Source: Owenia fusiformis (taxonomy: Eukaryota). From it: a stretch of DNA of 64,000 nt. The notes under the pieces were generated by a model, which was given only the letters and a program-made list of their open reading frames with translations, made no database searches and was not told the origin of the DNA. The translations under genes and the position numbers were made by a program. Below, piece after piece: positions 1,530 through 47,162 of the stretch (the stretch's first letter is position 1; the number at the start of each line of letters is the position of its first letter). Where the stretch lies: NCBI GenBank assembly GCA_903813345.2, contig CAIIXF020000001.1:5456001-5520000 (forward strand). Reading direction: 5' to 3'.

Positions 1530-1594
1530 AATAAAATGTATATAAAACATATTTACAAGCATGTTTCTTGCATAAGCTACAGGCAGAAGTCGTT

Positions 1595-21536: not shown

Positions 21537-21546
21537 CTCCCCCCTA
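21537..21546 (-). other. Polypurine tract
   Basis: Minus strand TAGGGGGGAG immediately before the 3' LTR. Confidence 0.85.
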
Positions 21547-24900: not shown

Positions 24901-27900
24901 CAATTGTTGCTGGCCTAATTCTACCAATGTGGACACAACTTCTACATTTGCTGCGTCAAAATCAGTAAGAGGCTCTATAATTCCCAACTCACACGAATTG
25001 ATGCTCTTCTGCATCTCCACTTCTATTAAACGCATTGTGTAAGATTCAATGGTAACATCCTCTTTCACTCTGCAATCCGTGACTGATTGACTTCCGCTAG
25101 CCTCTCCTATATTTGGTAACTCAGTATCATCTTGATTAACTGTGAGTCCTGTTGAACATTGAGCCTGCAACTCTGAAGCAGAACTGCAAGTCTGGAAGCT
25201 CTCTTCGTCACATTCTGCTGAGTCCCTGTTCAACTCTAACTCTGGACTACTTGATTTGTTTGAAAACAAATCTTCACTTTGCAAACTTCCTTGATATTGG
25301 GATAAATCAGGTTCTACATCTTGGGAATCTGGAGTGTCTTGAACACCCTGCACGTCACTCGACGATCCCTGGGACGTACTTCCCTGACTCACAGAGGGAG
25401 TCTCTGGTATCACTACACTCGTCGGTGTAACACAGATCAAACCCGGACAAAATGGTACATCAGGTGCAGGTTCCCATCCATCTTCTTCTCCGGATTTAAC
25501 TGGATAATAACCAATTGGACTTGATCTTACTCCAACAGGTGTCGACTGTGACACAGGAGTTCCAAGTTTGAGCTCAGTTAAATCATCATCACTGTTGTCA
25601 CTTTCATCTGTTGGACAAGGTGCTGGAGGCAACTCTGGTTCCTCAGGTTCCTCAAGCTGGATAATCTCGGTATCTGTATCTGCAGATGTCTTCTCTGAAG
25701 AAGTAGTGGAAGGCAGCATCTTATCTTCAATCACATTAGCTGCCATAGCCTCAGCAAGTTGACTTGCTGGAAAGGTCAATTCTTTAGCTCCATAATTTAT
25801 CACAGCACCAGTGATTGTCATGAAATCAGATCCTAAGATTCCATCATGATCAATATCTGCCACTACAATGGATGTTTGTGTTTCCTGACCATCTAATTCA
25901 ATTATTCCATCAATTATTCCACAGACTGCTATAGGACTGCCACTTGCTTGAATGAATACCCTATCTGCAGGATACAATCTGGGTTTCAGTCTATCTGGTA
26001 TCTGCATATAACTTCGCTGGCCAATCATAGTTCGAACGGCTCCAGAATCCACTAAGAACTCTACCTTCGTTCCACACACAGTACCAGTGGCTATTATCTT
26101 GCGTATCGTAGTGTCGCTACTATCACTTTTGGATATCTCCAAGTCTCCATGTGTTAGAAACTTGACAGGATTTGTGGATTCTCCTTTCGAATCTTTGATG
26201 ATGCCTTTCTTGATGTCATTCTGCTTTTTGTAACAATCAGACTGATAATGTCCTAACTTGTCGCAATAATAACATTTGACACCTCTGGACACAGGCCTTT
26301 TCTCTCCAGACTCATTGGATTTTTCTTTGTCCTTCAACTCTTGTATTATTGTCTTAAGATTAGCTGTAGATTCTTTGTGCATCTCTTGCACCACCTTCAT
26401 AAGATTCTCCTGCATCAATTTATTTTGCATTACTGTAGAGTCCCTATGCATCTCCTGAAACGCCTTTACCAATTGCATCATTTCATTTTGAGCCTGTTTC
26501 TCTTCTACAGCATTTACTCTTTCATCTCTATGTCTTGGTTTTAAACCTTTGCGCATCCTTTCAGACTCAAGATAAGACTCCTCTCGTATGGCAATTTCAA
26601 TGGCCTTGTCTAAAGTGCTGCAATCTCCGCTATGATTATGAATGGATCGCCTAATCTCATCATCAGGGATAGCCTGTGCAAAACGTTCCCTAGCCAAACG
26701 ATCTTGAGCAGCCCGAGGTAACTCAGGATATGCTAATGATGTCAGCCGTCTGACATCTTGACCAAGAGTCTGTAGTGTTTCCTTGGGTTTACGTGTTCGG
26801 CCCACCCACTCTGCTTGGTACACATCTGCTTTACCTCCTGGGCCAAACCTTTTATCTAAGGCAGACACCAATTCATCATACGTATAGCCAGGGTCCATCT
26901 CATAGATGAGTTGTTGCGCTTGACCCCTAAGGCTAGTTGCAAGAAACTGTTTCTTCTCTTCATCGCTCCATGAATTTGCACTTACACACATGGCAAAATA
27001 GGCTTTGTAGTCAATCCATGGTGTAGTTCCATTGTATGTGTCAGGTTTTATCTTTGTCTTGCTCTGAGAGGCAGCTCTCTTAGGTATTGTCTCTTCCAAT
27101 ACCTTCCCAACTAATTTAGTCGTCTCTTCATGCATCTTTGCAAACTGAGCTATCACTGAAGGCATTGTATCATTCATTGGTACGGCCGTTTCCTCTTCTT
27201 GAGGAGTAAAATGTGTCATATTTGCATTAGTCTGCAGAGCTTCTTCATATCTGGTTTCAGCCTCATTCGGTAATTCATCATATGTAGATCGGTATCTATC
27301 CTTGGAAGGCTGACTTTGAGTCTGTTGAGGCACAAACATTCTTTTACTCGGTGTTCCCACAAACTTTGTCTCTCCGAATCCATAGTCATCTTCTGACTTT
27401 ACAGCTGCAACTCTCCTTTTTGTCGGAGGACTCTTAAATGCAGGTCTCTTTGGCAATCCTGTAAAATCTTCATCAGAAGCAATTCTCTTCTGGCGTATGA
27501 GTGGCCACTTTGGGGGAGTTACTATTCTGGGTTGATCAGCAGTTAATTCTGGATTAACTAATGTAGGCCCCCCTACCACTCCTTGCTGCGGATTAAATGT
27601 AGAAAGAACTTCTCGAGACTGTAATCTCTGAGAAGTCGCACTGGACTTAGCCTGTAACATTGTTCTGGTGTCTACACTTGTTCCTAATTTCACTACAGGA
27701 CTTGAAGGTCTGACGTCACCCTGTAAAACTGGTTCAGGACGAGAAGTTGAACTTTGTAATGCCATATGTAAGGTCTGGCATAAGTTATTCATCTCTTCCT
27801 TAAATTCCGCCTTCAAAGTTTGTGACAAAGTTCCAATATGATCTTTGATCTGTGTGACTTCTCCACCAATGTTAGACATATGTCCTTCCATATTAGCCAC

Positions 27901-28515
27901 CTGTCCTTCTATATGAGACATGTGTCCCTCCATGTTAGACACCTGTCCTTCCATCATGTTTATGGTAGTCACATTCTGGTTAATGGCATCTTCCATAACA
28001 TGTATATGCGTTTTCATTTCTCTATCAACTGGTCTTTCCTGCGTGCCCAGTTTAAGTTCTGCAGGTGTAGTTATCATTGTTGAGGTGCGAGGCATATATC
28101 TATCTCCTTTGGGTCTGGCTCCCCATGCTTGACTCTGTGGACTATAAGCACCATCATGTACTGTGCCTGACCAATAGCCAGTAGTCTGTCCACCCCAGAC
28201 TTTCTTAAACTCTGTTTCTATCCCAGTCTTATCACTAGGGTAGATTGCTTCTGCACCACCAACTGTACGACGTCTCTCATCTGGATCTGCCTCACTTGGC
28301 AACCTCCATTTCTCCATCGCTGGGAGTTCTGTAGCCATGTGTTCCATAGCCTTTCTTCCTGTATATTGAAGAGTGTCATCCTTGGCTATGGGATTATCTA
28401 TCTCACCATCGGTAGCTAACTTTACAAAGACAGTCTTCTCTACATCTTTAGACTTGTCTGTATTTGTATCCGAGAGATCACCACTCTCTATCGACTTTGG
28501 AGCTTCTGTATCCAT
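21991..28515 (-). CDS. Gypsy Gag-Pol polyprotein, 2174 aa (RNase H and integrase apparently defective)
   Basis: Capsid KPDTYNG..W..Y; CCHC knuckle CYYCDKLGHYQSDC; protease FLVDSGA; RT SPWASP, MPFGL, YLDD; RNase H; integrase HSDQG..MIERYN; WKGPF. Confidence 0.95.
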   Translation of the reverse strand: MDTEAPKSIESGDLSDTNTDKSKDVEKTVFVKLATDGEIDNPIAKDDTLQYTGRKAMEHMATELPAMEKWRLPSEADPDERRRTVGGAEAIYPSDKTGIETEFKKVWGGQTTGYWSGTVHDGAYSPQSQAWGARPKGDRYMPRTSTMITTPAELKLGTQERPVDREMKTHIHVMEDAINQNVTTINMMEGQVSNMEGHMSHIEGQVANMEGHMSNIGGEVTQIKDHIGTLSQTLKAEFKEEMNNLCQTLHMALQSSTSRPEPVLQGDVRPSSPVVKLGTSVDTRTMLQAKSSATSQRLQSREVLSTFNPQQGVVGGPTLVNPELTADQPRIVTPPKWPLIRQKRIASDEDFTGLPKRPAFKSPPTKRRVAAVKSEDDYGFGETKFVGTPSKRMFVPQQTQSQPSKDRYRSTYDELPNEAETRYEEALQTNANMTHFTPQEEETAVPMNDTMPSVIAQFAKMHEETTKLVGKVLEETIPKRAASQSKTKIKPDTYNGTTPWIDYKAYFAMCVSANSWSDEEKKQFLATSLRGQAQQLIYEMDPGYTYDELVSALDKRFGPGGKADVYQAEWVGRTRKPKETLQTLGQDVRRLTSLAYPELPRAAQDRLARERFAQAIPDDEIRRSIHNHSGDCSTLDKAIEIAIREESYLESERMRKGLKPRHRDERVNAVEEKQAQNEMMQLVKAFQEMHRDSTVMQNKLMQENLMKVVQEMHKESTANLKTIIQELKDKEKSNESGEKRPVSRGVKCYYCDKLGHYQSDCYKKQNDIKKGIIKDSKGESTNPVKFLTHGDLEISKSDSSDTTIRKIIATGTVCGTKVEFLVDSGAVRTMIGQRSYMQIPDRLKPRLYPADRVFIQASGSPIAVCGIIDGIIELDGQETQTSIVVADIDHDGILGSDFMTITGAVINYGAKELTFPASQLAEAMAANVIEDKMLPSTTSSEKTSADTDTEIIQLEEPEEPELPPAPCPTDESDNSDDDLTELKLGTPVSQSTPVGVRSSPIGYYPVKSGEEDGWEPAPDVPFCPGLICVTPTSVVIPETPSVSQGSTSQGSSSDVQGVQDTPDSQDVEPDLSQYQGSLQSEDLFSNKSSSPELELNRDSAECDEESFQTCSSASELQAQCSTGLTVNQDDTELPNIGEASGSQSVTDCRVKEDVTIESYTMRLIEVEMQKSINSCELGIIEPLTDFDAANVEVVSTLVELGQQQLFVEVWNHTEFEKHLPAGITIGEYSTIETGVYHLTDASELPQDDVCILQGASAGTDINIQTLPAHLQELFDRSCEHLTDNQKEKVKVMLCRNADIFATGDADLGRTHLVKHHIDTGDSAPIKQMYRPLPKVKQEEVNKQIEDMLERGIIEKSKSPWASPIVLVKKKDNSWRFCVDYRRLNSVTKKDAFPIPRIEETLNMMNGSTYFSCLDMASGYWQCELDENAKEKSAFVVRGGLYQWVVMPFGLANAPSTFSRLMEQVLHGLSSQSSLVYLDDVITFLPTFDGCMDRLQEVFDRFRAAGLRLKPKKCSLFQREVDYLGHVVSENGIAPNPKKVQQMAEYPTPKNVKEVRQFLGGASYYRRHVQDFAKIAGPLHALTKKNQRFYWDGDCQVAFDMLKQKLITAPILAYPRDDCPYILDTVASNESIGAVLSQLQDGEERVIYYASKRLSKQEKNYCVTRRELLAAVNYVRYFRQYLYGVHFKLRTDHSSLRWLINFKDPEGQLARWLQVIQEYNFELEFRPGNKHQNADVMSRIPCRQCDHCEIPEETTMFCVEDITTVAIHPEWTLEKIAEALPNQEARTVADKIVAEVVCRLGMPATLHSDQGRNFEAKVFQEMCNLLGIEKTRTTPFHPQSDGMIERYNRTLLDSLAKLLQPEPHQTDWDLQIPFALMAYRTAVNESTGETPAMLMLGRELKLPLETLIEVPPMDTEESDYVTDLREKLSEAHDRAREKLKLSAERQKVAYDRRVAGHSYSEGDAVWYLDNTKRKGVSPKLESKWKGPFQIIKKISDVTYRIQIKGKKPRVIHFNMLKPYEAELPDDWRIPKSQPEIVMEPLTDDPVQELITDKVPCSTKHISKTVKWKDQEEKPEVEPERDSQPILPDETPDYKKTVKTSPKKEVDDKPSRRERKRPRHLDDFVAEVSTSRDSHQSRPYSKSPDYRHDWRSEYRHDRKRSAHFSDRHSRLRQSIK

Positions 28516-28571
28516 CTTTAAAGTGCTATAATGTGCCTCTGGTTCAAGTCTTCAGAAACAGTCAATCCCAA

Positions 28572-28585
28572 CACCGCTGCCACCA
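28572..28585 (-). other. Primer-binding site complementary to tRNA-Leu (AAG/TAG type)
   Basis: Plus strand CACCGCTGCCACCA matches the 3' end of animal tRNA-Leu as recalled (..AATCCCACCGCTGCCA-CCA), 1 nt from the LTR. Confidence 0.8.
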
Positions 28586-28586
28586 A

Positions 28587-31151
28587 TGTAACAGTTTGGC
28601 CTATTTTTGTGGATATACGTGGTAGCGTGGATAATAATAGGCCCACTGTTTAGTAAACGGTGTTTACTTGGTGAGTTACACGGCACACGTTAAATGTGCG
28701 ATTGTCCCTAAAGAATTAAACAGACATATACAATTAAATATAAAATATAAAACAGTATATTGTGGCGTTTATAAGCCCAAATAAAGATGTACATTAAATT
28801 TCAAGTCTAATTATAAGAGTGTTACGATTTTAATATCTCTCTCAAAACTCACAACTCAAAAGTCCATATAAGCTAATATTTATCACTAATAAAACAATAT
28901 CCAGAGTCCATATAAACTAATAATAATCACTAATAACACAATATCCAGAGTCCATATAAACTAAAGTTGATGATCACTATATACCACTGTTGTATCTCCA
29001 ATATTAAGTCCATATATGTTGTAACACTTGTAAGTCTTGTATTGTACTTGTAACTTGAACCTGAAATAGTAATCTCCTGGATCCTCTTCAATGTAGTGTA
29101 GTATGATTCAAGTTTGATGATATGAAATCATCTAAGTCAACCAGCGGCTCTGCAAATGTCTATCTCCTGGATCCTGTCAACTATTGCTCAGTAAACGGCT
29201 ATCTCCTGGATCCTCTTCACTGTATTGTAGTATAATTCAGCTTTGATAATGGGAAATCATCAAGTCAACTATCGGCTCGGTAAATGACTATCTCCTGGAT
29301 CCTCCTCAATGTGTTGTAGTATAATTCAACTTTGATTATGTAAAATAATCTAAGTTAAACTATCAAGTCTGGAAACGACTATCTCCTGGATCCTCCTCAA
29401 TGTGTTGTAGTATAATTCAACTTTGATTATGTGAAATAATCCAAGTCAAATTATCAAGTCTGGAAACGACTATCTCCTGGATCCTCCTCTCTGTAGATGT
29501 ATATTCTAACTTCAATGACCCAAAATCATCAAAGTCAAAATATCTCGTTGAATAAACTGCTAAGTCCTGGAACCTCTTCTATGTAGATGTATATTCCAAC
29601 TTCAATGACCCAAAGTCATCAAAGTCAAAATATCTCGTTGAATAAACTGCTAAGTCCCAGAACCTCTTCTCTGTAGATGTATATTCTAACTTCAATGACA
29701 CAAAATCATCAAAGTCAAAATATCTCGTTGAATAAACTGCTATGTCCTGGAACCTCTTCTCTGTAGATGTATAAGTCAAACTATCACAATCTTCAAACTA
29801 CCAAGTCCAAGGACGTCTAATACACGGCATCAACTGCTAAGTCCATGTAGCCTGCTTTCTTCACAATTAAATAATAAGGCTACCTACAAATATAGCATGC
29901 ACACAACGACATATGCAAAAATATAACATGTGAAAATATTTGACCTCTAAAATGACTAAGTTCATTTAATGTTAAGTGATACTGATATTAAAATATTCTA
30001 AGTTCAATATTTCTCTTTCCAAAAACAACAAAGTCCACAATAATATTTCACCAAATGTTGACTAAGTTAATTTCATACTAAGTTATACTGATGTTGAAAT
30101 ATTCTAAGTTAAATATTTCTATCTCCAAAAATAACAAAGTCCAAAATAATATTTCACCAAATACTGACTAAGTCCAATAATGTTGTAAATCGTCTAAGTT
30201 CCTTGATGATCAAAATAGCTTGTTTCTCAAACACAAGTTATGTCAGCATTTCCTCTCAGTCTATGAAGGCTGGACAATACGTCTAATGCTTTGCGCTGGG
30301 GATAGCTTCACCCTGTTGAAGTTTTGTCCAGTCTTGTAGATCTCTCTTATTTCCAGTGCGGTAAATAAACTAAGTCTCACACTTAGCTACATCAAAGTTT
30401 TCCCAAAATTCCAATCTCCAAAATAAACTAAGTTTCTCACACTTAGTTTCTCCAATCTGCCCTTGTATACTGCAAACGTATAGCTTGGCTCATCAGATGT
30501 ATTCTACTAAGGTACAGCTTCTATCTTCATGTGTATACTGCAAACGTATAGCTTCAAGACCACAAAATCGACTAAGTTCTATAAAACTTAGAAGATTTTA
30601 GCTGTTTCCCGAAATTCCGCTCTGGAGGTCCTTCCTCGACAACATCTGGCATCGCACTGACGAGCCTTCAACAGCGAGATAGTTATATAGGCCCGATGAC
30701 GTCATTGATTTTCGGACAAGATTTCAACTGTGAATTACAGCTTACTTACGCCATATTTCGCTTTAATATTGATCATACAGCAAGATTATAATATTGACTC
30801 AAGAAATATAACAGTAATTAATCACTATCTAGTCTAATTTCACTTCGATTCAATCGAATCAAAAGCAGGAAGTAAAATAATAAAGGTGTCATGTTAGACT
30901 ACCGATCAACTACAAATTAGACTGCCAGATAAGACTTCCCGATCAACATAAACAAAATCGTGATCAAATAAATAAAACATGTGAACTATTTCACCTCTGT
31001 AAGTACAACCTAAGTGCTGCAAATGATACTACATTTATAAATCTTAATAATCTCAATGGGAAATTACTTCTCAAGTGTAATAATTACCTTATATACAAAA
31101 ACACAGCACTTAATCAAAAATCAAAAATTTTACATTTAAAATTCCGTTACA
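28587..31151 (-). repeat. 5' LTR (2565 bp)
   Basis: TGTAAC..GTTACA inverted ends; adjacent to the PBS. Confidence 0.95.
30655..30705 (-). promoter_or_regulatory. LTR core promoter: CRE, TATA box and Inr
   Basis: Minus strand ATGACGTCAT (30705-30696), TATATAA (30689-30683), TCAGT with its A at 30658, i.e. TATA at -31; copy at 21041-21090. Confidence 0.65.
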
Positions 31152-31430
31152 CTATATAATACTCAAATTGAAGGAATTTTGGAGTAAATCACAATTATGG
31201 TATTATTTGTCAGATTTGTACCTCAGAAAATTCAAAATGAATGGATTTCAAGATGGCCGCCGCTTTAAAAATGACGGGACTTTTTCGCAAAAATCATAAA
31301 TTTTTCATTCTAAACCAAAGTAATTAATATTATTGTTTGAAATTTTGGAAATATATTCGCAACATCTATCTATTTCACATATATTCCGTGTTTTTCATCC
31401 TGACCCCCAGGGGCCCGTGTATGGGGGGTC

Positions 31431-31570: not shown

Positions 31571-31804
31571 GGAAATTTAATTTAAAGTCTTAAATACAAT
31601 TAAATTGGTATTTATGTAGTTTTAGAATCTGTTAATCTTACAATTGAGTCAGATGTCCAGAAATAAGCCCTTTATCAGTTCATCTTTTCAGAAAAGCAAT
31701 TAACTTGGTATATTGGCGATATCTAATTTATCCCTAATTCTTTCAAAATTCATCAATATCATAATGAAAGGTACATCTAATTGTTTTTATAGATATTTAA
31801 ATAT

Positions 31805-31940
31805 GGTGGGGTCGAGTTGACTAAGGGTTGAGTTGACCAAGGGTTGAGATGACTAAGGGTTGACTTGACTTGGAGTCGAGTTGACTAAGGGTTGACTTGA
31901 CTTGGGTTGAGTTGACTTGGAGTTGACTTGACCAGTTACC
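31805..31940. repeat. GAGTTGACT short-period repeat, probable transposon subterminal region
   Basis: GGGT(C/T)GAGTTGACT units ending ACCAGTTACC. Confidence 0.5.
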
Positions 31941-33807
31941 TTTTTAAAGAGGGAAAAACCTTTTCATACACCCCACTTTCAAATAAACGCCCATGGGCCT
32001 ATTCGCGAGAAACTAACATCGTATGTGTACAAAATAGAGAATTCCTTCCCAATATAGTGCTATTCCACACCATTGAAAAAACAGTTATTTACAAACCTGG
32101 CTGCTCTTCTCTGCCCCTGTTCCAACATATCAATATTTTTGCCAGTATGGATCCCATGCAGAACTGGCATATTCTGCAGGACTAGTGTCTTATATGCCTG
32201 AGCCTTCACTTTTTAAGGCCATTGATGGAGGTTGCGTCTGAGGAACCAAAGCACTTTATTGGCTTTGGATAGTTTGAATATGTGTAGTCAAGCGTAAATT
32301 ATTTGAAATATATATTATATAGATTAATCTGCTGGTTACTATCACACTGACGATATCTTTAGCATAAGTATTAGTTTTAGTTCAAACTATTTGAGATGTT
32401 TGAGTTATGTTATATTATGATAAGTATGTATATTTGTTATACACGTTCTATTATTTCAGGTACTGTTCACTGTAGACATTATTAGACGCCAGATTTTCAA
32501 TCTAGAGTGTATTGCTTTTGCCTGAAATCTTATTCTTGGAGCAATGGAACAACCATTCCTATTGGAATTTGAAAGATTTATTAAAGAGACAATTCCGAAT
32601 ATATAAAACTGTCATAGCAATGTGTTTTAAATGGGTCTTTCCACCACTGTCACTCAGCATGTAACATATATTGTATTCGTCTTTAAGTTGGCGAGCACTT
32701 TAAATTGGCGTATTTTGGCGGATTAAAAAAAATTGCTAAATTTGATATACGCCAAAATCCCCGGGAATTCGACATGTTCTTCCTTTGGTGCATTTCCGGT
32801 TATAAAAAAGTTATACCAAAATGGCCAAGCCATTTAAATTGTTAGACACAACAACAGCTATTGAAGAAATGAATATCAACAATAGGAAATACTGAAATAT
32901 GTTCATCAACAACACTGACTATGGGTATTTGACTTGGGTAAGACAGGGGGATGTCTGGGACACATAAAAAACCACCATAAATAGACGACAATAGCCCAAA
33001 TAGCACAAAATCGCCAAATTAAGTAGCGCCAAATTAATGACAAATACATGCATACGTATCTGGAGACTTTAGGTTCAACTGTTCAAGCAAAAAAACTGTA
33101 TTTTATTGACAGTGAAGTGTTTTTGAAAAAAGCCTATCAAAATCATGAAATTAGGAATTGGAATTTAGATAAAATATTCAATTCCCACGTTGGAAATTGT
33201 TTTGGGTACTTTCTATATCACTTTTTTTAGATTTGTCACTATTTAGTTTTTTGCAAGCATTTTTACGGTATTTATTTTTAGATTCTTTAAGGTTTTTTGT
33301 GTAATACAATATTACAACAATACAATTACATATATAGCCGTTCAACAATTATCTGGAGTCTTGTATTGAAATCTGTTCAATTTCACCAATCTAGTTTTTT
33401 TAAACAAGTTATTTGTGTATAGTTACCGTTTTTTACTGTTTATTTATTTGCTGTGGTGTCTATTTTCTGTTTAACATAAATCGACTTGTCGTCAGCAGTT
33501 CAGATAGATATTTATAAGGTAATTAATTAATTAATTCCTCCATTTAATAGTAATACCCTATAGTAAGTTATTTTGTACTTGTTAAAAACATTAATTCCAA
33601 ACGTACTCTAAAAAAACTGGTTCAAAAATAAATTTTATTCAGAAGTAAAAAGATTGCACTGTTGCCTATTGGTGAAATTAGAGAAAAGTATGCTACTCTG
33701 TCTGTGTTACATGTATAGAATTTGGGAGGTTGCATACCAATCTCTTTAAAGCCAATCATATAACGTACATAAGTGAAACATATATTTTATTATTTCAGAG
33801 TTACAAA

Positions 33808-35145
33808 ATGAGTGAAAGTGACATAGAGGGAGTATGGCCACTGTCTGACAGTGAACAACAAAACATATTAGAGACATTTGAGACTGAACCTGAGGAGCAA
33901 CAAATACTATTAGAGACGTTGGAGACTGAGCCCCAGGAGCAACAAATAATATTAGAGACGTTGGAAACTGAGCCCGAAGAGCAACAAATACTATTAGAGA
34001 CGTTGGAGACTGAGCCCCAGGAGCAACAAATAATATTAGAGACGTTGGAAACTGAGCCCGAAGAGCAACAAATACTATTAGAGACGTTGGAGACTGAGCC
34101 CCAGGAGCAACAAATAATATTAGAGACGTTGGAAACTGAGCTTGAAGAGCAACAAATAATATCTGAGGAAATGACATATGCCTTCAAATGCTGTATTTGC
34201 GGCTTCAAAACAAATGTATCATGGAAGGAACAACGTCACAAACATAGTCATACAAATCAGTACCAATGCGCGTTTTGTGGAAAACGGTAAGTTAAGAACT
34301 TGAATTTCTTCAACATATATTGCAATGACTTCAGTATGAATGAATGTTCTGGTCCTTGACTGTAATATGACTCTTGTTTGGGAGAAGGGTGTGTAAGACA
34401 CTATTTTTTCACGTAAGATCATGGTTTCGGGATATATAGCATCTATTTTTCTTATGACCATTTGACACTTAGAGTTTGCTTTTCTTGCTGGGTTTCTTTA
34501 ATGTTTTTACTCCTTTCCCTTTGGCGCTTGTGCTTAGTTATGCATATACTTCAAAGTTAATAAAAGTGTCAGGATATCACATTGGACACTGGACAATACT
34601 TGTCTTTTGCCACTTACTTAGGTTTTGAGTGAAGGGATATATCATGTGCTTTTTGTTTTGTTTATTTCAGTCATGGACAAAAGAGTGACCTTGACTCACA
34701 CGCGTGTCTACATACTCTTAGAATCAAAGAGTGCTCCACTTGTAGTAAGACTTACAAAACAGAGCTAGGACTTCAGAGACACGAGGCTGAACATACTGGC
34801 AACTATAGGCACATGTGCGAATATTGTGGGAAGGGGTTTTCTTACATAAACCTCTTTCAAGATCATCAGATGATACATACGGATCAAAAGTTAAAATGTC
34901 CCAAGTGTCCCAAGGAGTTTGCCTCTGCTAGAAATCTGAGAGAACATAAGGACATATGTGGTAAGACAGTAAAGGACTTTAAGTGCAGTGAATGCGGAAA
35001 TGTTTACAAGTCCAAACGGTACCTAAAAGAACACATATCACTGAAACATTCTTTAAATCCTCCTGTATACGTGTGCCATGAGTGTGGTAAAACATTCTGT
35101 TACAGGGCAACGCTTTCGAAACATATGAAAAGCAATCACAAGTAA
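33808..35145 (+). CDS. ZNF-1: 7-finger C2H2 protein with acidic 14-aa repeats; exons 33808-34286 and 34671-35145 (317 aa)
   Basis: CG|gtaagt .. tttcag|T splice restores finger 2 (CAFCGKRHGQKSDLDSHACLH); no stops; finger 5 is C2HC. Confidence 0.85.
33855..34170 (+). repeat. Coding minisatellite, 42-bp units alternating as an 84-bp dimer
   Basis: EPEEQQILLETLET / EPQEQQIILETLET, about 7.5 units. Confidence 0.9.
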
Positions 35146-36263
35146 ATAGTTCAGTGAAGTTTGTTAAGTTGTAAGTCTGTTCATGTATTTCTTTTATCTT
35201 ATATTGAATAGTATCTATGGAAGTATCGCATGTTTGGGGGCTGTTTAGTTATAGAGAACTTTGAACATTTCCCCTCAAACCTTTAATACAGATATATTAG
35301 TGGTAATGTAATCAACATGGGAAATGCAAAAGCTATCATGACGTCATCATCAAGTTCAGTTAGAGTCATTCTAAGTGAAGCCGTTTTCTTTAAAATTCTC
35401 CAATATCGCGGTTGTTTGAGCATTTATTTGTGGTTATTTACCATCGTAGCTTTATTAATTTGCATGGCGAAACATTTGGAATCCAGATTCAACTTATTTT
35501 AGCTGAAATCGGAGGTTTATCGAAAACGAAATGATCTCGGCAACCATCTTGAATGAAGCTAACTGCAGTTAGAGTCATCCAGTTGTGGAACAGTGTTTAT
35601 GCCTTCTACGCACACACCCATGCATACCCAACAAGGTAGCTGTTTAATAAATAAGGGGGAGGGGTCCAGAGATTGAGGACTGAACAATTTAATAGTAGTA
35701 ATGCTTTATTTGTAAGATGATAATGTCTGATTGTCATGTACAATAACACAACAAAAATCACAATATAAATTTGCCTCTTGAGCCAAAAGAAGTGGGTAGG
35801 CATAATTCTTTGGTTTCTTGAACATGATTTATTTAAATTTACGTCCATCAGTATATGGTGTCCAATCAAATCGCAGGATTTGATCAATTGAACAATCATG
35901 AGCATGTGCTCTCTCAGAGCTCCGCATGCGCAAATTATAATTTGATATTGTGGAAATTTGGAGGCTTTGAACTGAATTAACACATCTTAATGCTGTTGCC
36001 CTGATAATTAAGAAAAAGTAAAATAAATTCGAATTTTCTCTCTACAGGCCTTGTTGGCCCTTAAACTTATTGAGAATCGTAAAACAACAGTGAACATTTT
36101 GAGATAAATTTCAATGGTAAATGAGACCTGTTTATAAAATTGGTTATCGAACGTGCCAATACCATTACCAACAGATATCTTTTTGACCCCCCCCCCCCCC
36201 CACTGCTCTTAAGCTACAAATTAAAATACAATCTTTTCATGTTGCAATTATTGAAATATTACT

Positions 36264-39200
36264 CTACCTTAAGTCTGGATTTTGTCTGTAGTGTAACACT
36301 TCTGTTACTTGACTCATAACACGCTCTAGATTCACAGCTTTTGGGCATCCAAGTCTATTACTGTCAACTTCCGAAAGCGTTCCAAAGAAGGATTCATTTT
36401 CTAAAGAGCTGAAAGCTCGTTGATTGTTAGTTCCGCCTCTTACCAGTTTATATAGCTGAAGGTGGCTATCAATTGACAAAAGAAACCCCTCGAACATCTG
36501 AATGGGGAATCCTTTGATGTATCCTGCAAGTATACCATTGAAACAGGTTTTTATTAGACATATTTTACATATTTAACAGTGGAAATGAATTTAAAAAATA
36601 TATGTTTTATCACCTGAAGGCGGGGGAAATGTGTCGAACTTCACATTCTTTAAAAGAAGTGTCCTCATCTGAATTTGTTTTTCAATTCTCTCCATTGCTG
36701 GCATTCCTCTTTCGTCTTGTGCCTCGTACCAATCCCTGACAGTGCGTGTAAAGTTAGCTTCCTCTATAAAACATCACATTACCCTTTTAATTCAGTAACA
36801 ATCTCTAAGAAGAGATCTGAATTTGGAAGTCCCCTCTCATAGAAAGTGTAATAAAGAACCTTTTAAAAAGTGATTAATTGTAACTAAAGACTTGGAAAAG
36901 ATTAAAATACATAGGCTTTCATACACTTTCCGGAAGAAGATGTACCAGTTGCCAAACCTATCAGCGTTGTGTCACCTTTAAAAGTTTTGTTCAACTGCCA
37001 ATGATTCAACAAGATAATAACAAATTTATATTTCCTTACCCAAAAAGCCAAGATCACGCATGGCACTTTCAACTTCTGGTGAAAAGGTTCTTACAGCATA
37101 AGAATTCCTCTGTTTATCAAGAAGATCCTCAACTAAACTTTTGCTAATAATGGATTGGTCTTTATTGGCAACAGAATGCCAAGCAGATTTGCTAACTCCT
37201 TAGCAAATCTGCTTGGCCATTTCATCAAGGCCTCTTAAGTCAGACTCTTAAGATCTTTGAGTTTCCTCTTAGGCTTGACAACATGTATTTCTGTTGAATC
37301 ACCTATTGTTTTGGCGAGGTAGTTCACTTTCTTTGCCTTTGTCCAGCCTTTAACTGTCGGCTTACTGCTCAATGCCTCAAGTATAATGTCTATCTCTTTC
37401 ACTGTCATGCTTTGTATTCGTATGGCGGAGTTAACACTCAAAAACGTTATTAGCTGGTGAGGAGTGTAATCTTTCCATTTCAATGGTTTTATATTGCTCA
37501 GTCTCGCCAGGATTCTGATATAATCCAACTCCTCTAATTCATTGATGTTGGCTAAGATGTCGACAGGTTCAACTTCATCAGATGATCGAATTTGGCTCGA
37601 CCTACAATATTGTTAGGAATATGAAACATTATTATACTCTTCAATGATTTGAGTAGGATTGTAATAACATATTATGTCAGGAGACAATGATAATAAAAAT
37701 TAACTGTTTCATTTAGTGTACCAATCTTTTGAAAACCTTAAAGGATAATTTAAGTCACCAACCTTCCACCAGTGTGTTGTTTTTCAAATGTTTGGTTCAG
37801 TTTTCTTCAATTCACCTTCTCAACTACTCCTTCCAGATTACCGTTTGTAAGCACACGTTCGGTCCACCTTTGAAATACGAAAGTGGTATTATTGATTTTT
37901 AAATTGTTGTTTATGTAATACGTAGGCCAAATGCCTCTGACATATAAAACCAATTAATTAGGCGCACATATAAATACAATACCAATACTCTAATATGTGG
38001 CACTTACAAAATTATGTTCAATTTTACATTATTTTGTCTTTGTGTGAAAATATAATGACAGAACTGACATGACATGACAGATAATAGAAGTCCATTGTAA
38101 ATTAATTTTGAAAGTGAATTTTTTTAAAATTCTAAAAAGAAAACAAAAGTTGCCTAAATTAGATGAATGCTCTGGTGTTTAAAATGTTATACATGTATAT
38201 AGAAGGACAAAGGAAAGTAGAAGTTTAAGAAAGATTAAGTAAATGGCATGAGATTGAAGAAGTCCATTGTAAATTAATTTTGAAAGTGATTTTTTTTAAT
38301 TCTAAAAAGAAAACAAAAGTTGCCTAAAGTAGATGAATGCTCTGGTGTTTAAAATGTTATATATAGAAGGACAAAGGAAAATAGAAGTTTAAGAAAGATT
38401 AAGTAAATGGCATGGATAAATTAAAATATCAATAAAACAATATCAAACAACCTGTTCATTATAAAATACAAAAAATCCTACATACCGATTATTTGCATTT
38501 TACTTTGTGAAGATAGCTCAGTTATTACTCCAACTATATCTTCTTTTTTCATCTTTTGGCTTTTACTCCAAACAAACTTCTGCAGTTGTAGCTTTGTCAA
38601 TGGATTGCCATTTGCACTTGTATTAAATACGGGTAACCACTGTCCATCTGATGCCAATCCTGGTACCAATATTTTTCGTTTGTCACAACTATTGAGAATG
38701 TCGTCAATCATCTCTCTCATAATCTTGCAACTCAGACTATAGCCCTTCAAATACATTGAAACGAGCATGAAAAAGAAGTAACACGTCCATGTCCTTGAAT
38801 CTTCATTTGAAGTCTTCAAGGACTCGAATTGAGATATCATTTTATCAATTTTCTAATCAAAACATCAAAACCAAATGATTGGTTATTAAATGTAAGGATG
38901 ATCGCGAGTGTCTAAAAGAGTTTAAACATTACAAAACCAAACAGCACAAGACAAAAAATAGTGTATAATCAGTCATAAGGATAAGAAAATCACATTTCCC
39001 TTAACAAAATTCTAACTAACAAAATATGCATTATATCTCCTAGTTGGAAAAAAAACAAATCAAAATTTTACCTTCATGCAATACGCAATTGGTATTGAGT
39101 GTGGACACTCTTTTTTGTAGTGTCGGTTAGTATTTTGAAGGAGCCAAACAACGACCTCTGCTGCTTTTTTCCGACTTATTGAGTACATTTCGTAAACACA

Positions 39201-42200
39201 CTCCTTTGCCTTTACCAGCGAATCTTCAATAGCACTCGGCTGAGACAGTTCATCTGATTGCGCGGCAAACAGAAAAGGAGACTCGGCTGAAGTTTGGAGC
39301 TGCTCAATTAATTCATTGGCATTTTGTCTTGATGGAAACTCTCCAAGAAACTCGACATTGCTGCTGATAAATAATTTCAGTTTATCAGCTAACTCTTTGG
39401 TGAATGGTGGGCTGTGTATGGGCTTCTTAGTCTCAACTGTACAATAGAGAGCTGTAGAATGCATGACCAACTCGTCCCACAATGTCGCATCAAATGTCAC
39501 CTGAAAATGCCATTGATTATGTGTCAACTCCAATTGTTCCCTGAATGAATGAAGTAAAATAATCATACTTTAGTATATGATTCGAGCAATATTTTAGGAT
39601 GACAATATGGAGAGAATGCAAAAATTATTAAGCTCACTAGCTACCATTTGCATTGCGATAGTGTGATTTTGCTTTTTGAAAGATAGCCTCTGCATTCTAG
39701 GGTACTCACCAGCAATACAGTTGTACTTTCTTCAGTATAACATACAAGAAGAAGTTCCATTGCATCCAAAACATACATCTCGGCTAATACTTGACACACA
39801 TGATAATCTGGCAGGGTATAGTAGAGTGGCACTCTGTTGTAATTTCCACTTTGAACAGGGGCTGGGCATTTGATCTCAACGGCTAGGTTTGCTGGTAGAG
39901 ATGTCAACGTGTTCATACCACTGGGTATATCTACTTTTGATCTAACACTGCCATCTGGTGAAACTAGAATAAATGGACGCATTTCACTCCCCTCACCGTC
40001 ATCTGAAAACAGTTACATTAACAATAACAATAACTCATATAGAAAAAAAAAAAAAAACATACACACAAAATATCAAAAGACTTACATGAATACTACAATG
40101 GAGTAGACATGCCATGGTGTGTTAAAATTCCAACAGTTATTTACTGTAGAAAAACTTACCTTCATAATTTACAGCGTAAAAGCCTTCTTCAACAAACACG
40201 ATTGAAGGGTACAAGAAAGGTGGAACGACTCCTGATAATGTAGCTACTGCGTTAACTTCATTTATAGTTCCGTGCTGCATTCTCTGCCTTTCTTCCGCAG
40301 TAAAAATCCTTTCCTGTCCGAGAACCGCGCTGTTGAAATGTTGTTTCATTGCTTTCAGAGATCTGAGACCAAGGGCATTGTGCATTGTCGAACCAGTGAC
40401 TTTGAATTCTTTCCTTGCGTTGTACCATGCAGGCATTCTCTGTTGAATAAACCGCGGTATTGTTTCAAATTCATCTGGTAACATATCTTGTGATTTAAGA
40501 GTTACCCAGTTACCTTGTGCAGATCGTTTTACCTCTGGATTTTTGACGAAATCCTTGGACTTCCACAGTGAGCTATTTCTCCGACAGCATCGAGACTTTT
40601 TCTGATAACTTCAGTTGTTCTATGAATTAGGGTTCTGGCCGAATCCATTGCATATGCATACTTTCCAGTTCCACCACTTTCTTTCTCTTTTAATTCGTAT
40701 TGACATAATGCATATTCTTGCTTGGCTTTCGTATTTCGCATATCATGGATCCGTTTTCCTAACATTCGCACAACTTGTTGCATTTCGACTAGTTGAGTTA
40801 TTTCCGATGCTTTGATACTGTCCTACAAAATTCATATTGTTTTTCATTTATGATTAAAAAAAACAAAAGAAATAAAAATTGGGAGATCATTTATGAAGGA
40901 CTCCCTGTTTAGTTATTGACTTGCCATGTAATCTTGTAGATTTAAATGTCCTCTTTTGAATATTCGTAGTTTAATTTGGGTAATATTTCTATATTTTTCA
41001 TGAAAGAAATTATTAGCCCAGGAGACTGTTCTCCAAACCGAGAATCGTCCTTTGGGGTAGGTTCTTTAAATGGCCAGCAAATGGGCCATACACAAGCTAC
41101 AGTGATAAAACTTTGTCAACTTAGAGAACATTGAATCATCTTTAATTATCTCAAACAAGATGTGTCATACTCTATTTATTAAAAAGATATGCAATGTTAG
41201 GTGGGTTTCATTTTTTTTGAAACGCCCTGTACTTTGGTATTTAGGTTATTCAAAGTTAATTATGTTCAACATTCTGGAAGGAATTCACATCTTATATACC
41301 ACCTTTAAGTATTTGATGTCTATATAAATTCTTTAATAATTATTCCATTTGATAGCAATATATAAATACAATAATACATGTATAGTTAACAGAGCTATGT
41401 CAGTAAACAGAGCTATGTCAGTAACCCATGTATGTACATTTTGTTGGGAGTGAACATGTGAACTGCAATTCATATATTGAAAAAATTACAAAAATGCTTT
41501 ATTTTCTCACTAGAATGCGGGTACGTTACGTGTATAACACTATACAAGTCTTTTTCAAGAATTATATTCCATCGAACTCGTGAAATCGCGAAATATTTTG
41601 ATGCAAAATAACATTGTAAAATGTTACTGCATGGCCATGCAATACTTACAATTAACTTTTGAATCCTAGCTGTTTCATCATCAGCACAGGCTTTAGCATT
41701 AGCTGCAGTTTCTCCTTCCTCGTGTCCAAATAGATCGACCTCGCCACCTTTTTTGTTAAGACCTTGGGCTAACTTTTTCCCATCGAAGCTTAGTATATGT
41801 GATCCTTCAGAATTCTCAAAATTCTCTAGAGTTTGTTCTATTATCCCACACGGAATACTTTTGGGGAATTTAACAGTATTGAAATCTCTGATTATTTTCA
41901 TAGTTGGAGCGGCAAACCCATTTGACTTGTCCCCGCCCAGGAAAAGGACGAATTTTTCCTTGAAAAGGCGATAACCTATTTTCCAGAAGGTTAGAGTATC
42001 TGAATAGTATGTCATTCTTCGTTTGTCTGAAATCCTGTGCCATTTTACTGTTTCCAAAAATAATCTGAAAGATAGGTTGTCCATAGGGAAGGAATCGTCT
42101 TCAAGCAAACTAAATAGAGTGACAAATTCATTGAAGGAGTCCTGTTTGCTAAATTTCTGAACAAGGTTGTCAATTGTTCCCGCTATTTTCTCAGCCACTC

Positions 42201-42459
42201 GTTTGAGCTTTGGACTTGATAACTTTGATACAAAACTTTTATTTGTTTTTACAAATAATTTTCTGCTCGTAGATTTATTTTTTGGGGTGCCCCATTTCTT
42301 TTTTTTCAAAGGAGCGCTTACTGCTTCTATATAGCCTTCTCTTTGATGGCTATTACCCTCATCTTCAGTTTTAAACCCAGATTCTGTGTCTAGCTTCAGT
42401 TTCTTTCTTTTAGTTTTACACCAACGTGATTTAACAGCTTTCCTTTTTCTACTGTCCAT
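36264..42459 (-). pseudogene. Multi-exon P-element/THAP9-like DDE transposase with an inserted YqaJ exonuclease domain; disabled
   Basis: GT-AG exons 42459-41650, 40822-40160, 40002-39710, 39500-39072, 38744-~38486, 37601-37040, 36763-36614, 36523-~36268, mostly phase-consistent. Motifs LSFDGKK, LASDGQW, DKQR..A..FS..V, SSLENESFFG; YqaJ QR..WYNAR..VTGS, M.HG..NE, SPDG, EIKCP, CQVLAEM. Frameshift ~40560, stop at 37235, frame break ~37205. Confidence 0.7.
38086..38415 (+). repeat. Direct tandem duplication (~172 bp x2) in a transposase intron
   Basis: AGAAGTCCATTGTAAATTAATTTTGAAAGTGA.. at ~38086 and ~38258. Confidence 0.85.
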
Positions 42460-42749
42460 CGTAATTATCTGCCGTAAAATCAAAAATGTATCAATACAAA
42501 ATTTCACTGGCTGCATATTGCATACTGTTTCAATAAAGTTGTACTTAACATAGGGTTCATGTAAACTGCAACCAGACTGCTATTGTTGCTATAATTAATT
42601 GGCTATATAATAACAAGTTGTAACCAATAAGAGCCACAGTTACTCGGAGCCTGATTGCAGTTTGCACACTTCGTTTAACATATGTCAGCAGATGAACTGG
42701 AATCAATATTCAATGTACGTACAGTACACCTACTAATAAGGTGTGGATA

Positions 42750-45293
42750 GGTGGTCCAAAATATGGCGAAAAACCAACTTTCTTTCGGATCATCTTCCTC
42801 ATTTGACTTACTGTTGTCCATGACCTAAAACACCTGCACACCAAATTTTGAGACCCAAATCCCATGGAAAATTTACCCACGCTTCGACTGAAAAATTCGG
42901 TTATTTCATGATTTTTTGCTATTTTCGATAAATTGCCATCTCCTTTTTCTTGGTATAAAATGTTTCTATTTTTCATAATAAACATTTTTGTAGGACTCTT
43001 TATTACTTAATAATACTAGGAGCCCAAACACCAAATTTTGAGACCCAAATCCCATGTGAAATTTACCCATGCTTTGACTGAAAAATTGTGATTTTCACAG
43101 TTTTGTCCGATTTTCAATAGATTACTGTCTCCATTTTCCTGGTATAATATGTTTCTATTTTTTCATAATAAATATTTTTGGATGACTCTTTATTACTTCA
43201 TAATACTAGGAACCCATACACCAAATTTTGAGACCCAAATCCCATGGGAAATTTACCCATGGTTTGACTGAAAAATTGTGATTTTCACATTTTTCCGATT
43301 TTCAATAAATTGCTGTCTCCATTTTCCTGGTACGATATGTTTTATAATTAACATTTTTGAGGACTCTTTATTACTTCATAATACTAAACACCCATACACC
43401 AAATATCCACCAAATTTTGAGACCCAAATCCAATGAGAACGTTACCCATGCTTTGACTGAAAACTGGTGCTTATGATAGCTTATGATGTCTGTTTTAGGG
43501 GCATAATATGTTAATAAACATTATGGTAATTCCTTCTTAATCCAAAGAAACACCTAAATATCAAGACTTTAAGTCTTATTGAAAGGCGACAAATTCAGTA
43601 GTTTGGGGAAAATTTAGGATCTTTTACTTGTACATTTATATACTGTGGTTAATATTAAGAAGTGATGACTCGACAGCAACTCAAATGCCTTGAAGATTTG
43701 GTCTGTTGGTTTCAGTAGGGATGCATCACAGGACTTTGTTTGGATTTGTGTGAGATGTCATATTCTTTCTCACATCTTTGCAGGGTTAGGTCAAATATCA
43801 AATCTGATTTTCTTTGGAGAAATGATTTTTTGATTGATCAATGTATCAATGGCATGGTCTCTGTTGTAACCAGTAAGCCTGTACCAAATCTTCAAGGGAT
43901 TCGAGCTTCCACTGAGCTTTGTCATTTCTCTGAAAATGTTCATGTCCTGAAAGTACACAATGTAGAAGATAGGAAGAGCAATGAGAAACACTTAAGGTAA
44001 TTCTGTATGTTCAGAAATTTTAAGTGGAGTCCAATGTTATTTCTGGAACTCATTCCATACTTGGTCAGCTCTTTCAATTTTACACTGAGTTCAAATATGT
44101 ATTTAGATTATTAGTTGATGGTTAGTAATTTTCTATAATGTACTATGTGCTATGTTTATACACTGTTTGTGCATCTGAATGGAATGAGTTATGTGTTCCT
44201 GAAAAAACACGGGGCTCCAATTAGGAAGCCATTAAAACTGAAAATAAGGAATGACCTTAAAGTACTATATAACCATCTTTCACGATGTAACGTATGTAAG
44301 GCCAAACAGGATAATTAAGACAACGTGTAATACAATTTATTACAAATTGCACATCACACAACAAAGATATGGTGCTCTTAACGACACAAATCAAAAGTAT
44401 ATGATCAAAGCAAACGTGAATTTCCCATGGGGTTGAGGTCTAAACATTTGGTACATATTAAATGTATGGGTTCCTAGTATTAAGAACGTATTAATGTCCT
44501 CCTAAAATGTTTAAAAACTAAATATAAGATTAATGTTGATCTATTGAAAATTGGAGAAAATTTGCAGAAAATCACAAATTTTGGTTGAAGCATGAATTAA
44601 TTTCTCATGGGGCCAGGGTCTCAAAATTTGGTGCATATTTGGGGTATGGGTTCCTCGTATTATGAAGTAATAAAGAGTCCTCCCAAAATATTTATTATAA
44701 AAAATAGAAACATATAATACAAGGAAAATAGAGATGTATTGTATTGTATATGAAATAACCCAATTTTTCAGTCGAAGCGTGGGTAAATTTCCCATGGGAT
44801 TTGGGTCTCAAAATTTGATGTATGGGTTCCTAAGTATTATGAAGTAATAAAGAGTCATCCAAAAATATTTATTATGAAAAGACATCTACCATTTTATACC
44901 AGGAACATGGAGATGGCAATTTATCGAAAATAGCAAAAAATCATGAAATAACCGAATTTTTCAGTCGAAGCGTGGGTAAATTTCCCATGGGATTTGGGTC
45001 TCAACATTTGGTGTATGGGTTCCTAGTATTATGAAGTAATAAAGAGTCCTACAAAAATGTTTATTATGAAAAAATAGAAACATATTATACCAGGAAAAGG
45101 GAGATGACAATTTATCGAAAATAGCAAAAAATCATGAAATAACCGAATTTTTCAGTCGAAGCGTGGGTAAATTTCCCATGTGATTTGGGTCTTAAAATTT
45201 GGTGTGCAGGTGTTTTAGGTCATGGACAACAGTAAGTGAAATGAGGAAGATGATCTGAAACAAAGTTGGTTTTTCGCCATATTTTGGACCACC
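42750..45293. mobile_element. Foldback-type element: long inverted arms built of ~190-bp tandem units
   Basis: GGTGGTCCAAAATATGGCGAAAAACCAAC at 42750 mirrors 45265-45293; CACCAAATTTTGAGACCCAAATCCCATG recurs every 190 bp; ~950-bp unique centre; no clear TSD. Confidence 0.8.
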
Positions 45294-46486
45294 CTTACTG
45301 TGGAACTGTTACAAAGAAACAGTGGAGCTTCGTGTCAAATTGTGTTGATCGTCAAATGGGATGGAATATTATATGAACGAACAAAAGGATATTATCTTTA
45401 ACATTCATGGCACAATTCCAATTATATGTGGTAGCTGGGGGAACTAATACAAACACGAGTTTTACCAAAACAACTGGCCACGAGAGATTTTCGAATGATA
45501 ATTCCCGACTGTGCGCCCGTTTATGAAGAAACTTGAGGTAAGCTGGCGTGGGACATGGGTGAAAATGGTAGATAAATATGTGATTCAACTTATTAGACCA
45601 TAAACAGATCGGATAATTATTGTGAATTTCGATTTAGATGCAGTTCTATGACCTACCTGTCCGTGATTTCTACTCGAAGGCGCGGTAACCTCTACGGAAA
45701 ACGGCGGTATGAACGGGAAGGGGCGAATTTTCGCTCATTTTTAGATCTTTCTGAAGTATAGCTTTATTATACTCAAATGAAAGGCAATTAAGAGTAGATT
45801 GCAAATATTGTATCTTTTTTCTGATTCGAGCCTCGTAAAATTCAAAATGGCCGTCTAATGTACGATTTCGCAATAACTTTTCGATCCCTTCAACGTATGG
45901 CTATATAATACTAAAATTGAAGGAATTTTGGAGTAGATCACAATACACTGTATTATTTTTCAGATTTGTACCTCAGAAAATTCAAAATGGCTGCTTTGCA
46001 GGAATTTGCAATTCTAAAATCTAAATTTTTCAATTTTAACCAAAGTAATGAGTATAATTGATTGGAATTCGGTAATTGATATTTTGTTCGTTGGGATTTG
46101 CTACTCCGCGGAGTTGCCATTATCTAGTTTTCCTTGTTAGGGCATGGTCTACATTGCCTAACAACATTGGTGTATATAGACGTAACCTACATACGAGCAT
46201 ACAAAGCCAATTAAGCATAGGAAACCACCTCATATGTTCTACTCAAGGCATAATAATGTATTTTGTATTTGAATTTGCGGTTAAGCAAAAAATTGATGGA
46301 CAGTTACACGAACCTCATTCATATATGAAACCCTGATTCATTTCACATCGCTTGTGATCCAAAATTGAAATGTTGCTAGATATTTTTCAACCAGATTTGA
46401 GTTTTGTAAGCCATTATGTAGGATGAAATCATTCTCTCAAAATAGTGACATAAACAGCTGAATATGATTTGTTTTTGTAATTTTAG

Positions 46487-46900
46487 TTCCAGTGCGACGT
46501 GTGCCTGAAGTCATACACAACAAAAAACGGATTGAAATTGCATAAATTGCAAACTCATTTAGGACAGCCAAAGTTTGTATGTGAAATTTGTGACAAAGGA
46601 TTTTCTAGGAAAATAGATGTAGAAAGACATGCACATGTACACAGTGGGGAAAAGCCACATAAATGTCAACAATGCAACAAAGCATTTGCTACCACTGGGA
46701 GTCGAACACGCCATTTGGAAGTTTGTAAAAAGTCGCCAAAAAATTTTTCATGTGAATTCTGTGGCAAAAAATTTAAGGCAAAGCGATATTTGAAAGAACA
46801 TGTGATTTTCCACATGGATCCTCAGAAATACATCTGTCCAAACTGCGGTGAAAAGTTTAACTTTCGGCAGACTTTATATGCACATTTGAAGAAACATTAA
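46487..46900 (+). CDS. ZNF-2: terminal 5-finger exon of the host gene
   Basis: ttttag|TTC CAG TGC phase-0 acceptor with no ATG of its own; joined to exon C gives KSKRK-FQCDVC; HSGEKP linker; AATAAA at ~46969. Confidence 0.85.
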   Translation, partial: FQCDVCLKSYTTKNGLKLHKLQTHLGQPKFVCEICDKGFSRKIDVERHAHVHSGEKPHKCQQCNKAFATTGSRTRHLEVCKKSPKNFSCEFCGKKFKAKRYLKEHVIFHMDPQKYICPNCGEKFNFRQTLYAHLKKH

Positions 46901-47162
46901 CATCAACCTGACATTTTTCTCATCATATTGTACATGTATTATATCAAATGACATGATACATTTATGGAAATAAAGAATTTTTATAACATTTTAATCACAT
47001 CTTTTACTTTCTTCTTTAATATACATTCTTTTAAGTATAGAAATGCCCATTCATGAGACAAGTCTGCGTCTTAGTGACAGTGAATTCTAAAGCAATTTAA
47101 TTTTTGCACGTTTCTCAGGTAAGATTTTTGAAAAACTGCCTGATTGGTAGGGACCCTCTGGT

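Follow-up and report, generated by a model that had tools for sequence, protein, structure and literature searches.

A damaged two-gene transposon of Owenia fusiformis that probably couples a P-like, nuclease-bearing transposase with a tandem zinc-finger protein

Transposons of the P superfamily, among them Drosophila P, Galileo and THAP9, generate target duplications of 7-8 bp and encode a transposase with a guanosine triphosphate (GTP)-binding insertion domain and a dependence on GTP; in ProtoRAG, the genes of the element are laid out tail to tail. The subject here is a two-gene region of the Owenia fusiformis genome, located in a 64,000-nucleotide stretch referred to as the window (C1:5456001-5520000, where C1, C2 and so on label sequences of the 500-Mb assembly G000). 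The region is very likely a single element, and probably a damaged copy from a transposon family whose ends read CAC...GTG, whose insertions duplicate 5 bp of target and which encodes two proteins: a DDE transposase of the P-like type, into which a YqaJ nuclease domain is built, and, from a gene of its own, a C2H2 zinc-finger protein for which the ends of its element are the likely binding site. CAC termini and 5-bp duplications are features of Transib (PMC1131882), and promoters in both terminal inverted repeats (TIRs) of ProtoRAG drive its two genes and are the place where the C2H2 protein YY1 is bound (PMC7481187). KolobokE and ISL2EU are described as DDE transposons that encode a YqaJ or PD-(D/E)xK nuclease (PMC9587614; PMC4482050), KolobokE having a TTAA duplication, RR...YY termini and an exonuclease downstream of the transposase domain (PMC9587614), and PIF/Harbinger and ISL2EU as elements with a TWA or AT duplication whose second open reading frame is of the Myb/SANT or YqaJ type (PMC4482050).

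The region comprises the following features, given in window coordinates.

31722..32305, no strand assigned: remnant of the end on the zinc-finger side, tip deleted, 93-99% identical to TIR-bounded deletion copies (12 loci)
32300..32648, plus strand: transcribed stretch upstream of the finger gene ZNF-1 (stranded RNA depth 4.7 and 4.0, polarity as in the ZNF exons), which probably holds a 5′ untranslated exon
33808..34286, plus strand: ZNF-1 coding exon 1, with an acidic 14-residue tandem repeat (33856-34162), finger 1 and the start of finger 2
34671..35145, plus strand: ZNF-1 coding exon 2, with fingers 2-7 and the stop (Pfam zf-C2H2, E value 1e-19)
35332..35596, no strand assigned: high-copy repeat that has inserted between the two genes, with many genome-wide matches at 85-99%
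36268..36775, minus strand: last two recognizable exons of the transposase, which include the catalytic Glu motif SSLENESFF (profile positions 1224-1359)
37030..37601, minus strand: damaged transposase exon, with a stop at 37235-37237, about 90 codons including DxxH lost, and a 40-bp palindrome at 37178-37217
38486..39500, minus strand: two transposase exons, with RNase H strands 2-4 and the second catalytic Asp (ASDGQW)
39710..40430, minus strand: YqaJ/lambda-exonuclease domain inside the transposase, in two exons (Pfam YqaJ E values 1.3e-4 and 0.04; fold of a relative)
40431..40822, minus strand: transposase exon 2, helical part, with an assembly frameshift near 40560-40570
41650..42459, minus strand: transposase exon 1, with a Lys/Arg-rich N-terminus, a helical region and the first catalytic Asp (SFDGKK)
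42460..42747, no strand assigned: sequence upstream of the transposase ATG, common to deletion copies (94-99% identity in 8 of 40 loci scored)
42748..45298, no strand assigned: later foldback-type insertion splitting the transposase-side end, with long inverted arms, missing at this site in deletion copies
45299..45730, no strand assigned: transposase-side end, with the inner TIR part at 45715-45730 and the outer 14 bases lost (93-95% identity in 16 other loci)

The two genes converge. An earlier note on this DNA had described an intact seven-finger gene, and ZNF-1 is indeed open: from its ATG at 33808 it runs through two coding exons separated by a GT-AG intron, giving a reading frame of 317 codons that is free of internal stops and encodes seven C2H2 fingers, the fifth of which ends in Cys, and its splice junction is that of a public protein (P0052). 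The transposase, on the minus strand, has about eight exons, which begin at 42459 and extend to at least 36268; the last profile-matched exon ends at 36268, 1.12 kb from the ZNF-1 stop, in agreement with the tail-to-tail spacing of about 1.1 kb in the same note. This last exon is 61-65% identical to the copies on C7 and C3. Also as noted earlier, the Lys/Arg-rich N-terminus that starts at the ATG at 42459 has no DNA-binding Pfam match. The YqaJ domain of the window copy keeps the motifs G-x3-E, SPDG, EIKC and Q. As a separate observation, the 40-bp palindrome at the deletion junction of the transposase resembles a hairpin-repair footprint.

The element spans approximately 31.7-45.7 kb and has lost both tips, and a search for a TIR pair within the window found none, as the earlier note had reported for the surroundings of the pair. 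Its ends can nevertheless be read from dispersed relatives. The segment 45299-45725 is matched at 93-95% by 16 other loci, which run on to ...CCTGTG and a 5-bp duplication; 12 of these also match from 31722 onward and extend further left than the window's remnant, up to the TIR. The 16 loci are internally deleted versions of a single longer element, and in eight of them the inner breakpoints near the transposase ATG fall at 42587 to 42652. Both termini of the deletion copies read CACAGGTAGGGATCA, a pattern present in 16 TIR pairs, as against 0 matches for the reversed pattern, and each of the three target duplications checked (AACAT, TCCAT and ATGAT) measures 5 bp. Thus, the two genes do reside in one inserted block, as had been proposed, because they sit between the two halves of an element end common to dispersed copies. 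A CACGG at 45665 was considered as the element end and rejected, this position being internal. The foldback-type insertion that splits the right end is 2.5 kb long, has subterminal repeats of 190 bp and contains a short frame at 43719-44000.

The association of the two genes recurs elsewhere in the genome. Searches with three transposase parts all gave the same eight near-complete loci, one search adding a fragment, and the N-terminal part yielded 55 matches, fragments for the most part. At six of the seven near-complete loci besides the window, a multi-finger C2H2 gene is found no more than about 5 kb from the transposase, and TIRs with a 5-bp duplication enclose both genes (five pairs convergent, one divergent); by comparison, 0 of 20 arbitrary 10-kb control regions have a frame of two or more fingers (Fisher p 2.4e-5). 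The claim of a two-gene transposon, which the earlier note had made to depend on such linkage, is supported by this result. These six loci, and two partial transposase loci with a ZNF inside TIRs, are as follows.

C3:22030556-22041577, 11.0 kb: convergent pair, TIRs, duplication ACCAC
C5:4840270-4851071, 10.8 kb: convergent pair, TIRs, duplication TACAT
C5:40973451-40990880, 17.4 kb: convergent pair, TIRs, duplication GAGAG
C6:5362210-5371450, 9.2 kb: convergent pair, TIRs, duplication TTTAA
C7:16362885-16373950, 11.1 kb: convergent pair, duplication ATTAA, left TIR starting CAA
C11:10089561-10105233, 15.7 kb: divergent pair, TIRs, duplication TATTA
C2:1316131-1322720: partial transposase locus, convergent ZNF inside TIRs
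C8:28687873-28694127: partial transposase locus, same-strand ZNF inside TIRs

Six complete relatives and, for the window family, the deletion copies establish this as a TIR-bounded cut-and-paste DDE transposon family. Pairwise identity among the near-complete transposases of the genome is only 27-48%, and so the pairing with the finger gene is old. A metagenome contig from another organism (L114) likewise contains an open transposase frame of 1,461 codons and a convergent C2H2 exon. In seven of nine elements the nearest neighbor by transposase is also the nearest by ZNF (exact p 4e-4, for a statistic chosen afterwards), and both window genes are closest to those of the C7 element. The element ZNFs have roughly 4-7 fingers, and ratios of nonsynonymous to synonymous substitution (dN/dS) are 0.21-0.26 for ZNF pairs, ZNF-1 and its C2 paralogue giving 0.24; the value is about 0.5 for ZNF-2 against its mobile relatives.

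The transposase belongs to a large family that is widespread among marine invertebrates (at a 50% identity cutoff, 296 clusters score E<=1e-30), and the 51 homologues collected include named ones from bivalves, a gastropod and Owenia fusiformis itself; no relative was found among the viral contigs searched. Some copies contain introns. Open frames of 1,438 and 1,467 codons exist in this genome. A fold model was made for 1,200 residues of the copy at C11:19.85 Mb (predicted local distance difference test score 80, predicted template modeling score 0.71). Its best structural match is the P-element transposase (6P5A; Foldseek rank 1, Z score 26.2, root-mean-square deviation 2.8, 303 residues aligned), which covers chain residues 170-545, and RAG1 (6CIJ) gives a Z score of 8.3 with a deviation of 4.9. 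Residues 227-441 match lambda-type exonucleases (Z scores 14.7 and 14.1); this nuclease, together with a helical bundle, forms an insertion of about 480 residues between RNase H strands 1 and 2. The Glu, Asp, Glu-Lys and Gln of the YqaJ domain are invariant in 41 of 41 aligned sequences, from which the nuclease is likely active in most members. The family displays the order D-D-DxxH-E; the assembled window copy has lost DxxH. By sequence, the solved structures returned only an exonuclease (E value 0.019), Pfam TNP-like_RNaseH_N matches weakly in 4 of 14 proteins (best E value 1.5e-4), and a THAP domain was found at E<=1 in none of the 14. The modeled copy itself (C11:19849832-19857807), an open transposase for which no ZNF or TIR was found in 60 kb, is a candidate domesticated copy.

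Among 30 inverted CAC..GTG pairs, selected without requiring a duplication, 16 are flanked by 5 bp, two by 6 bp, none by 7-9 bp and 12 by 3 bp or less; the CAC-ended elements with 6-bp instead of 5-bp duplications are L048 4966-8337 and L035 5040-6026. Compared with the heptamer-spacer-nonamer ends of Transib and RAG, CAC is, by eye, all that the ends of different families here have in common, one family starting CACTGTG, and inspection, without statistics, reveals short repeated subterminal motifs that are specific to each family. A YY1-like motif, a pattern chosen afterwards, resides 65-98 bases inside the element in 14 of the 26 ends, whereas the expectation is 0.07 per end. The transposase would read the constant CAC and the finger protein would read the family-specific subterminal repeats, where it would help to load the transposase, set promoter output, or both; that the finger protein binds the ends of its own element is on balance the favored reading. 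An inward promoter probably exists in each end, which would explain the tail-to-tail layout. TnsA of Tn7 processes the 5′ (non-transferred) strand. In the present scheme, the 3′ ends would be cleaved and joined by the DDE core, and cleavage or trimming of the 5′ strand, in analogy to TnsA, would fall to the YqaJ domain. A predicted complex between residues 95-850 of the C11 transposase and its finger protein scored 0.00 and is used neither for nor against this scheme.

Several observations weigh against this account, some confined to the window and some concerning the family. In the window, the deletion copies diverge at 32305, and beyond this point they have a stretch of at least 860 bases with no counterpart in the window, which leaves a gap in the link between ZNF-1 and the left end described above. 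In addition, the closest relative of ZNF-1 (66-69%) is a member of a ZNF cluster where 30 kb were scanned without a transposase match. The break at 32305/32306, the transposase-less paralogue and the presence of five same-strand C2H2 genes in the window (ZNF-1 and four others) would suit an origin of ZNF-1 in a host cluster, with the element having landed alongside, or else a later entry of ZNF-1. This possibility, which applies to the window only, is very improbable, because ZNF-1 is enclosed by the two ends of a single element, has the position and orientation usual for such a gene, and shares its nearest element, that on C7, with the transposase. Moreover, a contig of sequencing run X1 has 443 unmatched bases left of 32304; the assembled haplotype may have lost sequence there, although this is suggestive only.

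In the family, the near-complete open transposase at C11:19.85 Mb has no multi-finger frame or enclosing TIR in 60 kb, only two of the seven partial-transposase loci examined have a ZNF inside TIRs, and only one of seven loci from other organisms is informative for linkage, L114 alone having an open transposase and downstream room and the other six metagenome loci being too short, cut or fragmentary. The YqaJ motifs of L114 look partly degenerate. Over 94 columns, transposase and ZNF distances show no significant overall correlation in a Mantel test (rho 0.23, p 0.12), and 11 of 22 inner branches of the ZNF tree are left open. The C11 transposase without a ZNF, together with the variable orientation within the C11/C8 clade and the existence of TIR-less ZNF relatives in host-like clusters, is what would be expected of a captured host gene carried as a passenger with no transposition role, in the manner of Pack-MULEs, perhaps with the host retaining it as a repressor of the element. 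However, the ZNF is retained in seven of eight near-complete loci despite the low identity of their transposases, as well as in another organism, and no second cargo gene recurs, so that capture of a passenger appears improbable. Finally, the N-termini of 37 homologues comprise 15 with a CxxC-H-H finger of their own, 9 that are Lys/Arg-rich by rule (one with a truncated start) and 13 of other or partial type. The earlier suggestion that the finger gene replaces a missing DNA-binding domain is weakened accordingly: the absence of a recognizable domain in the window transposase stands, but transposases with an N-terminal finger are also accompanied by a ZNF, which is thus no plain substitute for THAP.

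The finger genes also travel alone. Three ZNF-only elements, with CAC repeats, 5-bp duplications and no transposase match inside, were found.

C6:8849823-8852150: ZNF-only element
C6:25753228-25755517: ZNF-only element
C4:27634490-27640319: ZNF-only element

None of the eight near-complete loci has a transposase sharing the TIRs of the two 2.3-kb elements on C6. Finger genes also accumulate in clusters, at C8:28.65-28.71 Mb and C2:0.69-0.73 Mb; in each of these, all 10 multi-finger frames share a strand, and element-type ZNFs are mixed with long ones. A homologue search with six element ZNFs returned 22 mostly generic C2H2 proteins, with no locus tags adjoining transposases. These findings bear on the possibility that the finger gene is element cargo that acts away from the ends, in target choice or in countering host silencing. 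Long co-inheritance and purifying selection would suit any role useful to the element, and such cargo could account for ZNF-only elements that move in trans with their frames still open and for the build-up of element-type genes in clusters. Nevertheless, the target duplications all differ, with no consensus visible, and the family-specific short repeats at the ends, which were seen without statistics, need a reader; a role away from the ends is therefore considered rather unlikely, and end binding by the finger protein is retained as the preferred reading.

The other C2H2 genes of the window, all on the strand of ZNF-1, include mobile relatives. The second gene (46128-47172, gene at 46487) is 82-85% identical to the two 2.3-kb C6 elements, and that at 54595-55551 (54602) is 80% identical to the ZNF of the transposase-bearing C6 element; behind it comes a fragment of the transposase-side end of the same element, so that this is an internally deleted copy without TIRs. 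The genes at 49147-50418 and 59573-63106 form a paralogous pair (76-83% DNA identity, dN/dS 0.26), for which no parent element was found.

Both genes of the element are transcribed. In two stranded runs of one study, of which 6% each was read, all RNA over the ZNF exon bins is of one polarity (depth 0.4-6.3, with 0 for the other), and the transposase exon bins have 0-2.0 on the opposite polarity; no splice joints were among the RNA joints listed. The transposase had been described as decayed, and the assembly does contain a frameshift, a stop and the loss of about 90 codons, but these lesions have not reached fixation in Owenia fusiformis. In runs X1 and X2, contigs contain 13 extra bases at 40558 and are thereby free of the frameshift; an X2 contig departs from the assembly at 37213 with 361 unlike bases; and at the stop codon (37235-37237) the X1 contigs split into alternative paths, an X1 contig also having the assembly version. 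Decay is thus specific to a haplotype or copy. The proposal of the earlier note that ZNF-1 remains open through host retention is unsupported, since other haplotypes are without at least one lesion (that at 40560 is missing in both X1 and X2) and both genes are transcribed; furthermore, the chance of an open 954-nt frame beside two to three lesions in approximately 3.9 kb is 48-61%.

Further mobile sequences occupy the rest of the window. Four short CAC...GTG elements with 5-bp duplications are found at 8626-9160, 11528-12280, 57057-57620 and 57857-58538, and the second has its first 24 bases in common with the TIR of an element at C11:10.09 Mb, which is likely to be its autonomous partner. 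A Gypsy-type long terminal repeat retrotransposon lies at about 18791-31160, with long near-identical direct repeats and a 2,186-codon frame (21991-28551, minus strand), a broken piggyBac-like transposase (Pfam DDE_Tnp_1_7) is present at 14530-16745, and two long minus-strand frames at 3-3235 resemble, by eye, a long interspersed nuclear element.

Tandem C2H2 genes are commonly viewed as host weapons against transposons (PMC10547256). Here they are transposon cargo that is mobile without a transposase and has relatives in same-strand clusters, and the ZNF-only copies offer a possible route by which animals gain new zinc-finger genes. If so, transposons in worms and molluscs would not merely be targeted by fast-evolving C2H2 genes but would also give rise to them. 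The presence of two predicted nuclease centers per chain, with P-type catalysis and RAG-type ends, bears on the evolution of second-strand cutting and end recognition. Open transposase copies are on hand for experiments, both in this genome and in Solemya, where seven named proteins fall in one 90% cluster and one of these is on four contigs.

Comparison with known transposons places the family between established groups. It resembles the P superfamily in its best-matching fold, which extends over the whole catalytic span, and in the D-D-DxxH-E order, but differs from it in the lack of THAP (14 of 14 proteins), the YqaJ insert between RNase H strands 1 and 2, the second gene, and duplications of 5 bp rather than 7-8 bp. 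CAC termini and 5-bp duplications are shared with Transib, whereas the transposase is far closer to P than to RAG1 (Z scores of 26.2 and 8.3, respectively). ProtoRAG is likewise a two-gene element, and the putative inward promoters and the YY1-like motif near the ends add to the likeness; its partner, however, is RAG2-like and not a C2H2 protein, and, unlike in Transib and ProtoRAG, just the first three end bases are constant in this family. With a P-like fold but no THAP, and with Transib-like ends, the family fits neither superfamily. KolobokE and ISL2EU are similar in encoding a YqaJ-type nuclease in a DDE transposon, although theirs lies downstream of the transposase domain or in a second reading frame, whereas the present one is enclosed by the RNase H fold; their duplications are TTAA or AT, as against a variable 5-mer here.

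No description of the family was found in the literature searched, which lay outside subscription journals, Repbase Reports, supplements and the Repbase and Dfam libraries; we rather doubt, while considering it possible, that one of those two libraries has an entry for it. Many CAC-ended elements with 5-bp duplications now filed as Transib may belong here. Somewhat short of an even call, and thus only tentatively, the family could represent an undescribed animal lineage at the superfamily level, combining a P-type transposase, a TnsA-like nuclease within the catalytic fold, RAG-like ends and an exchangeable, end-reading tandem-finger partner, with ZNF-only derivatives that seed host ZNF clusters. 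PIF/Harbinger and Nuwa also have two genes and a separate predicted DNA-binding protein (PMC4482050), and differ in the fold match of the transposase, in 3-bp duplications and in a Myb/SANT protein instead of tandem C2H2 fingers. The family works like a P-type cut-and-paste transposon equipped with a Harbinger-like partner gene.

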